Made by a program: the position numbers and the translations under genes. A DNA stretch of 64,000 bases from Lingula anatina (lineage: Eukaryota > Animalia > Brachiopoda), in the NCBI GenBank assembly GCA_051362555.1, contig CM120640.1, forward strand, positions 42,882,788 through 42,946,787, read 5' to 3'. A model generated the notes under the pieces. That model saw only the letters and a list, made by a program, of their open reading frames with translations, did not search any database and was not told where the DNA came from. Shown here piece by piece: positions 40,743 to 55,607 of this stretch; positions within the stretch are counted from its first letter, which is position 1, and every line of letters begins with the position of its first letter.

Positions 40743-43322
40743 TCAGAAACACTTCCGATGCACTATCTGTGGGCCACATTCTTCATATTCTTGATAGTTA
40801 ACACACATTCCCAAGAATGCAGGCAAACTGGCCAGCACTACACCACCTTGCCAAACAGAATACTTTCTGTCCTCTACACTGGAGATTTTAATACTGTTAC
40901 TCACACCTGCTGGAACCATGTCACTCAGTTCTTTGAGCAGACGTTCTTTCAGCCCTGGAAGCATGGTGGTTCCTCCTGCAAGGGTTCAGAAGGATCATAC
41001 TTATGTTTTATAACCATGATAAGAAAGAGTGACAACTTATTAAAATAAAGTCTTGATCTGCTGACTGTAAGCTACACATTTTTTAGGCTCGGAGTCTGAT
41101 TTCCAGTTACTATTTCTTTTTTCACATACTGACTTTAAAAAAATCACATGGTCACTTAATAGCTCAATAGCGTGTTAAACAGTAATTAGTGCTTTTTATC
41201 CAATGTCAATGGATCTTACCTGATAACACAATGTTACTGAGCAGTTCTCTTCTGATGTCCATGTCACACTTATATATGCTATTATAGAGGCTTTCATGGA
41301 TGCCACCGTGATCTCGCCCACTCAAAGAAGGCTTGAAGAGTATTTCTGGGCATCTGAAAATAATACAATGATATGTACTCAAGATTTTCAAACCAATGTA
41401 TTTCATATCTATAGTATTAAAATAGGAGATATGTAACTAAAAGAACCAACATTTCAACCTTGTTAATTCAAAAATCTGTTGTTATGTTTTGTTTCTATAT
41501 TAATATAATATTTAGTCTTTAGGGGCTGTTATTATATATATATTTTTTCAACAAGGCCATAAATATAGCTAAGAGCTATTTCAGATGGTAATAAATTGAC
41601 AAAAGTATTGTTGGCATCCTTTCAAATCAGCACCTGGTTCAGACACATTACCTGTATCTCTCAGAAGCAAGTTCAATGATACGTCCATCAGGCATGGTAT
41701 ATTGTTCCTCATTACTCTGCTTCTTTTCTTCTACTTCAACGTTCTCTGCTACATAGCACAACTGTTCTTTGATATCTCTGGCCACCTCTGTCTCTGCTGT
41801 GGTAGTGAAGCAGTGTCCTGATGTATTAAGCAGCTGTAAAAACAAAATTACTTCAGTTAAATAAAAAGTAACAAAAATTGCTAAACTTGTACACTTTTTG
41901 TTAGTTTCAATGCTGAACCATGAGGTCTTGAAACAGTTATTAAAAGCATATTATACCAATGAAACAAAGACTTCTTCATATATGTTATTTACCCTGCTGT
42001 AACATATACTGTATGTAACTACCCACTCTTTCACCAAGTCAAAAACCTTGTAGCTTTAAATGACAATGTATGACATTACTGAAAAATGTTCTCTTTTTCT
42101 CACTACTAATTCCATTTTACCTTCATCAAATACTGTGTGAGATCTCTGCCAGCTAAGTCTATTCTCTGCACAGCATGTGGCAAGCAATACCCTTCATACA
42201 CTGGAACTACATGACTGACGCCATCACCACAGTCCAATACAACGCCTGTTCAAACAAAAGAATACAGCATTAGTATTTCTTTCTCAATATCATTCAGTTT
42301 AGAAAATGAGAGGCATTTCTGTTTGTTTCAGCATGCTTAAATAAACATGAAGTACTTAAACATATTCCAATATACAACCCAAATTAAAAAACACAGTGTT
42401 AACAAATGATTAAATATACATCATTTCTGTTAACTAATACTTAAGACAGCCTTCCACAGTTTTTTTATCACTTAAGAAACTGGCTTTTTCATACACCACC
42501 CTTACCTGTTGTTCTTCCTGATGCATACAGAGACAGAACTGCCTGAACTGAGATGTACATGCATGGAACCCCAAAGTTCTCAAACATAATTTGTAGCATT
42601 CTCTCCCTGTTTTGTTTTGGGTTGAGTGGAGCTTCTGTCAGTACCAAAGCATGCTCATCCGGCTGAATTCTTAACTGATCAGCAAAAGCATGATGCCATA
42701 TCTGAAACAAGGCAAATACCACAAAAAAATAAACAGTAATTCACAAACAAATTTAGTGTAAGTCTAGCAAGGCTTTTTTTTTTTTTGGCAAGTTTAAGTG
42801 TGATTTTTAAAATATTCAGACCAGTCACAGGAAGTCAAAAGTCCTGGTATGTGATTTAAACCCTACTTTCCAAGTTAATACCATAAAAAAAAACTTTTTT
42901 TTTTGAATTCACAAACAAACATGCCTTTTCCATATCATCCCAATTAGTGACCAGACCATGTTCTAGTGGGTGTTTCAAGGTGAGTACTCCACGCATTGAC
43001 TGGGCTGCATCTCCAATGTAACAGTCCCTGTATCTGCCAATTAAGATGTCCTAAAATAGAAGTACACAGTAATGCACTACTGACAAGGTCCAAAAATCTT
43101 CAGTTGCTTGTACCTCAAAATTAACTTAATTAAGGCAACTGTGATGGTTACTTTAGACTTCCATTTGAGAATAAAATCATAAATAGGATTCCCACTTACC
43201 TCATACTTGGGTCTTCCCACTACAGAAGGAAAAACACATGATGGGAGATCTTCATTGGCAAATCCACATTTACACAGTCCACTACCATTGTCTAACACTA
43301 CAGTTGTCTTTAGATAATCTAA
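40743..43322 (-). CDS. Divergent actin-fold module (372 aa) of the fusion gene
   Basis: [103 protein letters not shown]-stop. Confidence 0.95.
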
Positions 43323-46300
43323 CTGAAGTAGACATGAAAGAATGATCAGTGATACCATAAGATTGTTTAAAAATCAGAACAATTTTGAACCTAAGTTTCT
43401 TGTAATTCTTTACAAACTGGAATCATCTCTCAACAAGGCTTGAAAAGTTTGAAATGGCCCAACCTATGCACAGCCTACTGATACAATACTGAATGAAATC
43501 AAACTGAAAATATGCAAGCTGAGATATTAATTATTAACTCAATTGAAAAAAAAAAACAGAAAATGATTGACCAAGAACCCATACAAGAAGCAAAGAAATA
43601 CAAACAGGATTTCACTAATCTTTCAACACACGCACAACAGTAAAAACTGAAAACAGCATAACATAAATTCAGCATATTTCCATTGAATGCAGAGATCACA
43701 ACAAAAAGTAAGATAGTAAACAAAGTAAATTCTGTTCTTTATCACTGGTTATAAGGGAAAAAGAGAAATAAAGCATCTCAGATAGAAGCAAGCAAAAAGA
43801 ACCAACCTCAGGAGGATAAAAGTTAGCAGCCATACTGGGCAAAGATACAGTGGAGGATGCATTCTCTTTGATTCCTAACATCCTGTGTTCTTGATACACT
43901 GACTCTAACCTCTGACGAGGTGAACCATCGACATCATCATATGACACACCATGCTCTGGCTGAACTGCAGCCAAGTTTCCTTCCAACACTGTTGGTTTTA
44001 CCATTTCTAAATTATTTGGCTCCACATTTCTGTTGTTTTGATCACCAGAAACCATAGCTAGGTCAATTTGATCAGTAGTCTGTATACATCTGACCTCCTC
44101 TGTTGATATTGAGGGCAGTTTCCGATGCCCATTCTTCTTTTGCATCTTGGTTTTACTTGCAACAATGGATTTAGAAATATTTTTATGAGACTCAAGTTTT
44201 AAAGATGAAGAGTTGTGAAGAGATTCAATCTTTTCAGCTGTAACATTTGATTTTGTTTTCACTGGTATTTTGCTTTTCACAGGATCTTTCTGATCTTGAG
44301 TGCTTTCTAGTTCATTTTGTGAAATTACAACACTTTTCTGTACTAATTCAACTGATGTGTTTGTCTCCAATGTATTATCTTCATCTTTCATCCTCACAGG
44401 CAATTTCCTTTCTGCTAATTTGGACCGTGTCTTTCCAGTTGACTTTGCCTCTTTACTTTCCTTTGTTTCCCTTCCAACCTTACTAGTTTTACCTTTCAAT
44501 GAATTTCTTGAGTTCATTTCTGACACCTGCATTTCCTCAGATCTCTTCTCTCCCACTGGGCTAGAATCCCCTTGCGCCCTCTCCCCATCAGTAACAGTAT
44601 CAAGTGCCACTTTCCAGTGTCCTTCTACTGGGTCTAACCCATACATGTCCAACTGTCCTGCTGTAGCAAGAGTTTCCAGAAATGGAAGCTCTATTTCCTC
44701 TTCCTCCTCTCCTTCTTGTTCAGTAGAATCCCCATCATATGCTGCCATCTGTTGGTCAAAGCTTATGTTAATATAGTTTTTCTGGCCCTCTTCCTTTTGT
44801 GTGTTGCAAAAGCTGGCATTCATGTGAGATGGCGTGCCTTGCATAAACTGAGCATGTGTTTCAGCGAACACTGCATCAAAATGACTCCTTTCAGAATTCT
44901 TTAGGACACCATCAATGTCTGTATAATCTGAAACCCTCTTCTCTTCAGGTTTTCTGTTTTTGTCAAAAACATCAAATTCTGGCTCAGTCTTCATCCTTAC
45001 TGGCAAAGACCTTGTATATCCACTGATTTCAGAGTCAGAAATCACACTGGCAAATTCAGGTGGGACTGGTAAGACATGGCATGTGGACACAGTAAAGTCA
45101 CTTGGGGTACTAGACTTGGTCCTTGTCTGTGGGTGCTCTGTCAGGCTTGGGGCTGCAGCACTAATTTCCACTTCAATTGGCAAATGACCAACAACAGAAG
45201 CATTAGCAGTAACTGTTCCATAATCATTGTAATCACAGGCAGCTGCAGCAACACTTTCCAAAGCATCATGCCCACTAAAACTAGTATTTGGGTTCATAGC
45301 ATTACAATCAGAAACATCAAAGACAAACCCATCACCTAGAGTATTAGTATTAGAACTGTTAATACCAGAGGAATGAAAATCAACAGCCTCGTGATACGAG
45401 GGCAGAGGAATGTTAGTGAACACTTTGTCATCCTGTTTTCCTCCATCTGAAGAATACCTGTCTAATTTCACATCTACTGGTGTTTTCACCAAATCTTCTT
45501 TATGGTTACTGGTTTCTTCTTGAGCAGTTGGCATATCTCCATTTCCTCCAATTTTTGGTATATTTGGTCCGCTGCCACCATAATCATCACTATGGATAAT
45601 CTCATCAATGTGTTTTTCCTGCAGAAGAACTGCTTCCTCTTCCTAAAATCAAAACACCACCACCTTATTTCAAGTAATTATCAAATTGTCGCTAATTTTA
45701 TACATATTATGTAGAAAACTAGAACTTATCAATGGATCCGATTAATACCAATAAATCACTTTTTTGGAGGAGAAATTGTAAACAGGGATGAGGATAAATT
45801 CAGTTATTTCTACTAAACTTGCACGTAAATTTCACTTTCCCTCTATGCGTACATAACATAAAATAATGTAACTGATTAAAATTTGTACAGGACTGGATGA
45901 AATAAAAACCAGGGAAAGAAATATCGTATAACCTGATTATAAGAAATTAAGCCAGTAGGAGCAGATATTTTTCTTAAAAATTCAAAAGTTCAAGTCATAA
46001 CATATTCCTATATTATAAATAACAAATACTTCAATCTAAAATTAAATGCCATTTATCCTTGTTCTACCTGTAACAGCTGCTCTGCCCTCTTCAGACTCTC
46101 TGCAACCTTTTGCTGCAGTTCTTCTTGGAATCCTGTGTCAGATGAAGAGTCTTCTTCTTTTTCCGTTACTTCAGCATGTTGAGTATTTGGATCACATTCT
46201 GATTGAGCCCTGAAGAGAAACAATACATTAAATAAGCTTTAACAATGCTTTACCATCTGTAAGGAAAATATAACAAGGCTGCTTAAGTTTTGTGATGGCA

Positions 46301-55300: not shown

Positions 55301-55607
55301 ATTTTCGCCAATATTGATGAATAACTAATTTATTGATCTCAAACATATTAATCATAGATTTGTTTGATTTTTCTCCAAGTTTCAATCAATATAAATCAAT
55401 AAATAAAATTGTAACTGCATATACAAAAAACATCAACATAAGTCTCATTATACGTAATGAATAAGTTATCAATATTGTTCTGAATCGTTTGGTGAATGAA
55501 TGGATGACTGAGTGGGTCGAAAAGCGCAGACACCGACTAAATTTGACAGTCTTTCTCAGCCTCTTTGGCTAGTAAGTGAACTTACCTGAAACCCCGTATT
55601 TCTCCAT
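40743..55607 (-). CDS. CRAL-TRIO/SEC14-like + spectrin-repeat-like + long low-complexity linker + C-terminal actin-like domain (~2084 aa, 21 exons): 55607-55586, 55258-55184, 54941-54718, 54312-54184, 53878-53762, 50786-50626, 50221-49972, 49766-49638, 49387-49196, 48884-48652, 48396-47680, 47368-46460, 46209-46068, 45642-43807, 43322-43200, 43050-42925, 42701-42506, 42245-42121, 41833-41652, 41353-41220, 40975-40743
   Basis: N-terminal [19 protein letters not shown] and [21 protein letters not shown] resemble Trio/Kalirin/SESTD1 Sec14 domains; helical repeats with AEKVYRWLE and LAKVSRWY; all exons join in frame (6255 nt) through to the actin part. Confidence 0.75.
47397..47490. repeat. Compound (AT)n(AG)n microsatellite
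   Basis: Direct reading. Confidence 0.97.
53005..53113. repeat. Inverted repeat / small MITE-like hairpin
   Basis: taagatcatggaatc pairs with gattccatgacctta (1 mismatch); inner agca/tgct arms. Confidence 0.6.
53468..53534. repeat. Imperfect (CA)n microsatellite
   Basis: Direct reading. Confidence 0.9.

Follow-up and report, generated by a model that had tools for sequence, protein, structure and literature searches.

In a 64,000-nucleotide stretch of the Lingula anatina genome (contig CM120640.1 of assembly GCA_051362555.1, positions 42,882,788 to 42,946,787; hereafter the window, with coordinates counted from its first letter), a minus-strand gene was found whose long splice form is predicted to encode a protein of 2084 amino acids (aa) in which a predicted Sec14/CRAL-TRIO domain and spectrin-like repeats are followed by a long linker and a C-terminal actin-like domain. 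By domain order, linker helix and derived actin the predicted protein belongs to the family of zebrafish si:ch211-241j12.3, a fusion family that is real, ancient and apparently uncharacterised. As a tentative explanation of its function, a membrane-docked Sec14-spectrin head may tether an actin subunit to seed or cap filaments, with a short splice form that is actin-less.

The fusion gene and its transcripts

Recomputed splicing joins 21 exons of the minus strand (55607 to 40743) into one frame of 6255 nt with a single terminal stop, exactly as the earlier note on this DNA had described it. The gene has 18 GT-AG and 2 GC-AG introns, with the GC donor at 42925 being confirmed by reads and the second lying at 49972. 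Its parts and the domains they encode are as follows.

55607-55586 (-), exon 1, coding part; start ATG at 55607, N-terminus identical to RefSeq XP_013389992.1
55258-55184 (-), exon 2; Sec14/CRAL-TRIO part
54941-54718 (-), exon 3; Sec14/CRAL-TRIO part
54312-54184 (-), exon 4; Sec14/CRAL-TRIO part
53878-53762 (-), exon 5; Sec14/CRAL-TRIO part
50786-50626 (-), exon 6; spectrin-like repeats
50221-49972 (-), exon 7; spectrin-like repeats, GC donor
49766-49638 (-), exon 8; spectrin-like repeats
49387-49196 (-), exon 9; spectrin-like repeats
48884-48652 (-), exon 10; spectrin-like repeats
48396-47680 (-), exon 11; end of a third helical unit, then Ser/Glu/Lys-rich linker
47368-46460 (-), exon 12; Ser/Glu/Lys-rich linker
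46209-46068 (-), exon 13; Ser/Glu/Lys-rich linker
45642-43807 (-), exon 14 in full, 1836 nt; ends NFYPPE at a phase-0 donor
45642-45458 (-), exon 14, short form, 185 nt; internal donor 45458, junction reads
45457-43807 (-), exon 14, optional extension, 550 codons; donor 43807 gives the in-frame fusion
43806-43323 (-), intron 14, 484 nt; in-frame ATG at 43358
43322-43200 (-), exon 15; actin-like domain, begins LDYLKTT
43050-42925 (-), exon 16; actin-like domain, GC donor
42701-42506 (-), exon 17; actin-like domain
42245-42121 (-), exon 18; actin-like domain
41833-41652 (-), exon 19; actin-like domain
41353-41220 (-), exon 20; actin-like domain
40975-40743 (-), exon 21; actin-like domain, terminal stop
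40742-39800 (-), 3′ untranslated region, with transcription reaching at least 39800; AATAAA at 40605 and 40019
55258..53762 (-), exons 2-5, aa ~20-190; predicted Kalirin-type Sec14/CRAL-TRIO domain (Pfam and fold)
50786..48652 (-), exons 6-10, aa 190 to ~545; predicted spectrin-like repeats (fold)
48396..46068 (-), exons 11-13; Ser/Glu/Lys-rich linker (negative FoldIndex, junction reads)
46133..45571 (-), aa 1079-1124; conserved linker helix spanning the exon 13/14 junction (profile match)
43322..40743 (-), exons 15-21, aa 1713-2084; actin-like domain (Pfam Actin on 7/7 exons)

The length and phase-0 ending of exon 14, and the lack of a methionine in exon 15 ahead of the DNGSG motif, both reported in the earlier note, are confirmed in the sequence. 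Over the 550 optional codons of exon 14 the frame is free of stops, compared to 28 and 61 stops in the two remaining sense frames, and the longest open reading frame in 1000 shuffles was 177. On the basis of 44 coding variants, with 15 weaker variant rows left out, the actin exons carry 8 synonymous and 5 missense changes and the optional part of exon 14 carries 12 missense and 6 synonymous, with 0 stops in either.

The sole match to exon 3 (100% identical) is XP_013389992.1, an uncharacterised RefSeq protein of 1404 aa from L. anatina, which tracks exons 1-14 near letter-for-letter and ends KLDR at donor 45458, without actin. It carries aa 190-433 (exons 6-9) a second time as 434-677, while one copy is present in the window; the duplication may be an assembly artefact or a haplotype difference. 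A 576-aa ankyrin and Death-domain protein also has at its end a copy of exon 9 (49387-49196) with 94% identity, which suggests, from sequence likeness, that the exon is duplicated elsewhere or that the protein model is a chimera. An ATGGCG with an apparently strong GTAAGA donor after it (55744-55733, minus strand), some 135 nt ahead of the start ATG, may be a first exon that is non-coding or carries an upstream open reading frame, and would be out of frame through the next acceptor.

RNA evidence was drawn from eight of nine same-species raw-read runs (X1-X8) of three studies, with 6-26% of each run used and a threshold of 3 reads for the listing of a junction; junction reads cover exon 11 onward and the splices from exon 1 to exon 11 rest on the match to XP_013389992.1. 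The listed junctions include exon 12-13, exon 13-14 and all six inside the actin domain, with exon 11-12 appearing as a 10-read loose end. Into exon 15 the sole listed junction runs from donor 45458 to 43322, with 15 reads in 7/8 runs (X1 2, X2 3, X3 1, X4 0, X5 2, X6 2, X7 4, X8 1). As these spliced reads join exon 14 to exon 15, the linker and actin exons share one transcript. The junction is of phase 2 and out of frame, with KLDS and then TAG closing an actin-less protein of 1162 aa. Read-through of this stop was ruled out, there being a second stop two codons on and the actin lying in another frame. With six introns still to follow, this stop may target the short form for decay.

As regards the in-frame 43807-43322 junction, on which the earlier note had based the fusion, it is absent among the listed junctions of the eight runs at the 3-read threshold, but its use may be discerned in binned depth. 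Bin 43722-43828 has 44 bases in X2 and likewise in X5, each equal to 2 reads of 22 nt ending at 43807, and the X7 bin 43595-43847 has 41 bases, equal to one read of 41 nt ending there. At the start of exon 15, X5 has 4 x 29 bases though 2 short-donor reads are listed; in the control X6, 2 x 29 bases match its 2 listed reads. It would appear that ~5 reads in three runs use donor 43807, some of them possibly mates of one fragment, and the full-length in-frame form is probably a minor splice form in the sampled RNA. Over the optional part of exon 14 sense coverage is patchy, reaching 4.9x in X2, 5.4x in X3 and 5.9x in X5; following the caution of the read-mapping tool itself, dips in depth carry no weight as findings.

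It is very improbable that these exons belong to two adjacent genes joined by read-through, with an independent start for the actin (at 43358 or in exon 15) and with the fusions as model artefacts. Such an arrangement would fit the in-frame ATG inside intron 14, 36 nt ahead of exon 15, the excess of reads over exon 15/16 compared to those into exon 15 (30 against 3 listed in X2; 14 out against 1 in for X3) and the 66 bases that X1 has within the intron (bin 43342-43594). However, 4/4 runs examined have zero sense depth from 43401 to 43721, and models from amphioxus to caecilian have the same order and frame. A hexamer scan found no AATAAA or ATTAAA in intron 14 or the optional part of exon 14. 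This, the spliced reads and the zero sense depth in the intron run counter to the outcome that the earlier note had named as refuting the fusion, namely transcripts ending in intron 14 and actin exons with a promoter of their own, and the single gene and transcription unit of that note are supported. The intronic ATG and the internal donor 45458 had both been missed in that note.

Another unlikely possibility is that the working product in Lingula is the 1162-aa actin-less scaffold, with the actin form being rare, tissue-restricted or, as in other spiralians, in the course of being lost. The 15 listed reads compared to ~5 reckoned from depth, the ending of the RefSeq model at the short donor, the actin-less models of the closest relatives and the preponderance of missense variants in the optional exon (12 to 6) are all consistent with this. 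However, all seven actin exons of the gene are intact, its 550 optional codons contain no stop, transcription extends to the optional exon and the actin domain groups with the fused domains of chordates; the models of relatives may also be truncated as Lingula's is, and the short form may be the one marked for decay.

Domains of the encoded protein

The N-terminus has a Pfam match to CRAL_TRIO_2 (PF13716, E 4e-5) and none to CRAL_TRIO_N, with the Sec14 domain beginning at ~aa 20. Pfam Spectrin gave zero matches on the gene's repeats, which are visible by fold alone, so of the CRAL-TRIO and spectrin head proposed in the earlier note, Pfam recovers the former but not the latter. An AlphaFold model of aa 1-434 (40 sequences) gave a predicted local distance difference test score (pLDDT) of 92, and its best fold match in the PDB was the Sec14 domain of Kalirin (7ur2; Foldseek E 1.8e-6, Z 14.8, root-mean-square deviation 1.9, 149 residues aligned), after which came spectrin folds with Z of 12-14.6 (3f57, Z 14.6; 1s35, Z 13.4). 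Two repeats are folded in the model, and a third helical unit, ending in exon 11, is indicated by the alignment. A helix of residues 181-217 is predicted to run unbroken from the Sec14 domain into the spectrin repeat. The segment of aa 123-146 is lysine-rich, with 7-14 lysines or arginines in 24/24 aligned rows examined, and could bind acidic membranes. For the related SecSR proteins, a published description states that their Sec14 domain uses a surface groove for lysolipids rather than an enclosed pocket (PMC9823006). No Pfam match to RhoGEF or PH was present in the RefSeq protein or exon 14, whereas both occur in 9/9 outgroup proteins.

On charge and hydropathy the linker (aa 546-1712) is predicted to be disordered, with a negative FoldIndex. 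Its conserved helix is present in both splice forms, and a profile built from six sequences matches many relatives, both actin-bearing and actin-less. In the AlphaFold model of a fish orthologue (1114-aa isoform) this helix is the sole stretch with pLDDT above 70; the mean is 36, actin included, a low score that does not prove disorder. A complex prediction of the helix with the fish N-terminal module and actin scored 0.00 with the alignment unused, and is not used as evidence. Vertebrate orthologues also have a conserved LWD(S/T)YDLH motif ahead of the helix (e.g. aa 787-797), and most fishes a second charged helix after it; neither was seen in the Lingula protein.

With regard to the actin fold that the earlier note placed at the C-terminus, Pfam Actin matches 7/7 of the C-terminal exons and 224/370 residues (~60%) are identical to cytoplasmic actin; the best 60 PDB sequence matches are all actins. 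When compared over sets of functional residues based on actin structure, identity to cytoplasmic actin is 16/18 for the ATP loops, 5/5 for the catalytic set, 19/23 for the barbed-face cleft and W-loop, 16/29 for long-axis contacts, 17/31 for cross-strand contacts and hydrophobic plug, 5/15 for the myosin face and 3/15 for the DNase I-binding loop (D-loop). The plug carries M269R, E270D and S271H, and the K113-E195 pair is altered, by E195T in Lingula and by the lack of K113 in vertebrate members. Retained are the C-terminal HRKCF, long-axis residues 202-205, 243-245 and 286-290 and the hydrolysis residues Q137/H161. Judged by these residues, the domain should bind nucleotide, and its barbed face should be able to receive either a D-loop or a cleft-binding helix.

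It is improbable that the actin domain stays monomeric and makes no contact with filaments, acting at the membrane as a decoy or scaffold for cleft-binding partners (profilin, cofilin, and WH2 or RPEL proteins). The preserved cleft, W-loop and HRKCF, together with the changes to D-loop, plug and K113-E195, would suit such a role, but the long-axis contacts and Q137/H161 are also kept, and a pure decoy has no need of these. Less probable again is a specialised structural actin-related protein (ARP) of one cell type, e.g. sperm or ciliated cells, serving as the building block of a stable structure attached to the membrane. Divergent ARPs are often tissue-restricted, as with the testis actin-related proteins, and both the ~60% actin identity and a conserved, family-specific D-loop would agree with this; however, reads were present in 8/8 runs from three studies, whose tissues are not given.

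Introns fall after actin residues 41, 84, 149, 191, 255 and 300, and these six introns point to an origin of the domain by duplication of an intron-bearing gene and not as a retrocopy. A search of proteins of 22-662 aa (7991 candidates scored) returned mainly conventional or duplicated actins; among the best 120 there was no free member of the subfamily and no row named Lingula, which is a weak negative. RefSeq has many mollusc models, called "actin-like" and 534-538 aa long, that consist of one-and-a-half actins fused at the same point (four inspected); tandem actin genes probably give rise to this gene-model artefact repeatedly.

Family, origin and possible role

A HMMER scan with aa 1-434 gave 185 matches, and among the best 150 of these some actin is present in 23, with at least 300 actin profile columns in 19; the actin domains of these relatives are 50-59% identical to that of Lingula. 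Twenty matches were looked up by name, 13 with actin and 7 without. The actin-bearing ones are from Branchiostoma, Scyliorhinus, Erpetoichthys, Polyodon, Amia, seven teleosts (two with the name si:ch211-241j12.3) and Rhinatrema, and many of these models have several RefSeq isoforms. Atlas has two clusters of hypothetical proteins, of 77 and 62 members, with Actin at 100% and CRAL_TRIO_2 at 45-50%; the Atlas cluster nearest to the short form is mainly molluscan and without actin. No description of the family was found in a literature search, with subscription journals and supplements outside its reach, in agreement with the earlier note's view of the architecture as uncharacterised. The zebrafish gene does appear in a gene table (PMC6555922), and PMC12146513 has a free sponge actin as its subject.

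In a quick tree of the N-terminal module (31 chosen sequences), 22 family rows group apart from 9 RhoGEF rows (SH-like approximate likelihood ratio test, SH-aLRT, 99), with Lingula among the spiralians and actin-bearing and actin-less rows interleaved. The actin tree splits 17 fused domains from 17 free actins (branch support 100/99), as does one with 15 divergent free actins added (8 fused against 22 free, 100/100). The fused actins share E93Q, K61M/L, S271H and M16L, a conserved D-loop specific to the family and, in 4/4 fused rows examined, a two-residue insertion near 325; vertebrate members have changed N12, K336 and often H73. The simplest reading would be one fusion before the protostome-deuterostome split. 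The actin-less relatives may represent losses or annotations that stop as Lingula's own does, the latter because the Lingula annotation lacks actin though the gene has it. The fusion is older and more widespread than the earlier note had suggested, the same domain order being present in chordates; the closest spiralian and ambulacrarian models that were named have no actin.

In the seeding or capping role proposed above, the long splice form would encode a 233-kDa protein whose Sec14-spectrin head docks on the membrane, while a nucleotide-binding actin-like subunit, held on a tether of ~1170 residues, would seed or cap filaments nearby. Since the ATP, catalytic and cleft sets are kept and the D-loop, plug and myosin face remodelled, this subunit might accept normal actin or a cleft partner better than it forms filaments of its own. 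The choice between donors 45458 and 43807 would set whether the membrane scaffold carries actin. A broader version is more doubtful, namely an overlooked member of the actin family that was already present in the bilaterian ancestor and has been retained in lineages from brachiopods to amphibians; it would be a lipid-sensing seed or cap with its own actin subunit on the same chain, in which splicing toggles the actin.

A number of points weigh against this role and the fusion behind it. To the unlisted in-frame junction, the 66 intronic bases of X1 and the 3 against 30 reads of X2 may be added that no full-length fused Lingula protein was present in a homologue search of 772-2457 aa (best 7985 candidates scored). 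Identity of the Sec14 domain to that of Kalirin is 20-24% in structural alignments. The named models from Owenia, Tubulanus, Octopus, Ptychodera, Antedon, Acanthaster and Patiria are actin-less, as are 13/13 of the other models of the spiralian and ambulacrarian clades in the N-module tree. The actin trees are unrooted, have long fused branches and are without an Arp1, Arp2 or ArpT outgroup, and the surface residue sets (loops, cleft, D-loop and myosin face) come from general background on actin structure rather than from the analysis itself. In Lingula, D-loop residues 43-45 are hydrophobic (I-L-I) and PDG is retained at 243-245, and with these residues co-polymerisation would be as open as capping.

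The family appears to predate the protostome-deuterostome split, and natural actin fusions are otherwise regarded as rare and recent; it is a probable new branch of the animal actin/ARP family. The seeding or capping reading, if true, would amount to a novel mode of anchoring filament ends at the membrane. The fusion is testable at once in zebrafish, which keeps the gene under a clone name, and the RefSeq model of the Lingula gene, in stopping at the short donor, illustrates that annotation can hide a fusion.

Neighbouring genes and known systems

The fusion gene lies head-to-head with a gene for ribosomal protein L32 (56692-57808, plus strand; Pfam match on 57222-57494). The two coding starts are ~1.1 kb apart and likely share a bidirectional promoter. 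Pfam survey of neighbouring regions covered 13261-28902 and 61509-62950 of the window and identified the following.

15612-15869 (-), Vps26 (Pfam)
18024-18263 (+), RNA recognition motif gene (Pfam), presumably resembling U1A
26818-27108 (-), PurA (Pfam)
61509-61826 (-), leucine-rich repeat gene (Pfam), which we take to resemble SHOC2

Small open reading frames at 1986-2581 (-) have a signal-peptide-like stretch and a dibasic site, with no Pfam match, and are possibly a neuropeptide or other secreted precursor.

Among known systems, the SecSR proteins (Kalirin, Trio, Dbl/MCF2, Dbs/MCF2L, MCF2L2 and SESTD1) have in common, according to their published description, a Sec14 domain without CRAL_TRIO_N that leads into spectrin repeats (PMC9823006). 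The Lingula protein is Kalirin-like in its CRAL-TRIO fold and in the last helix of this fold, which in the predicted model runs into the spectrin repeat. It differs in having fewer repeats, a long linker and a C-terminal actin, and in a Sec14 identity to Kalirin that lies below the 35-77% given for mammalian SecSR members (PMC9823006), its branch being separate from that of the RhoGEF proteins. Dbl-family RhoGEF proteins have a DH-PH tandem after the repeats; because it has no DH-PH, the Lingula protein is not a Dbl-family guanine nucleotide exchange factor. Actin is a third C-terminal ending for Sec14-spectrin scaffolds, beside RhoGEF or nothing. The nearest systems are the orthologues of zebrafish si:ch211-241j12.3 (ENSDARG00000043963) and amphioxus LOC144910122, known as database models, with the same domain order, linker helix and actin group.

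With conventional actin the Lingula domain shares the nucleotide loops and hydrolysis residues. However, conventional actin is a free protein of 375 aa, closely similar to other actins, with an acidic N-terminus and a conserved D-loop, whereas the Lingula domain is fused and matches that loop at 3/15 positions. Arp1, Arp2, Arp3 and Arp11 have a divergent actin fold as free subunits of complexes and may template or cap a filament end; in Lingula the actin fold is covalently tethered. Primate POTE-actin and Dictyostelium filactin are natural proteins with actin C-terminal to other domains, POTE-actin being a recent retrocopy of a near-identical actin. The Lingula protein differs from these in its partner domains, in the six introns and ~60% identity of its actin and in its occurrence in a brachiopod and chordates. 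It is neither a Dbl-family exchange factor nor a conventional actin, and would work like a Sec14-spectrin scaffold.

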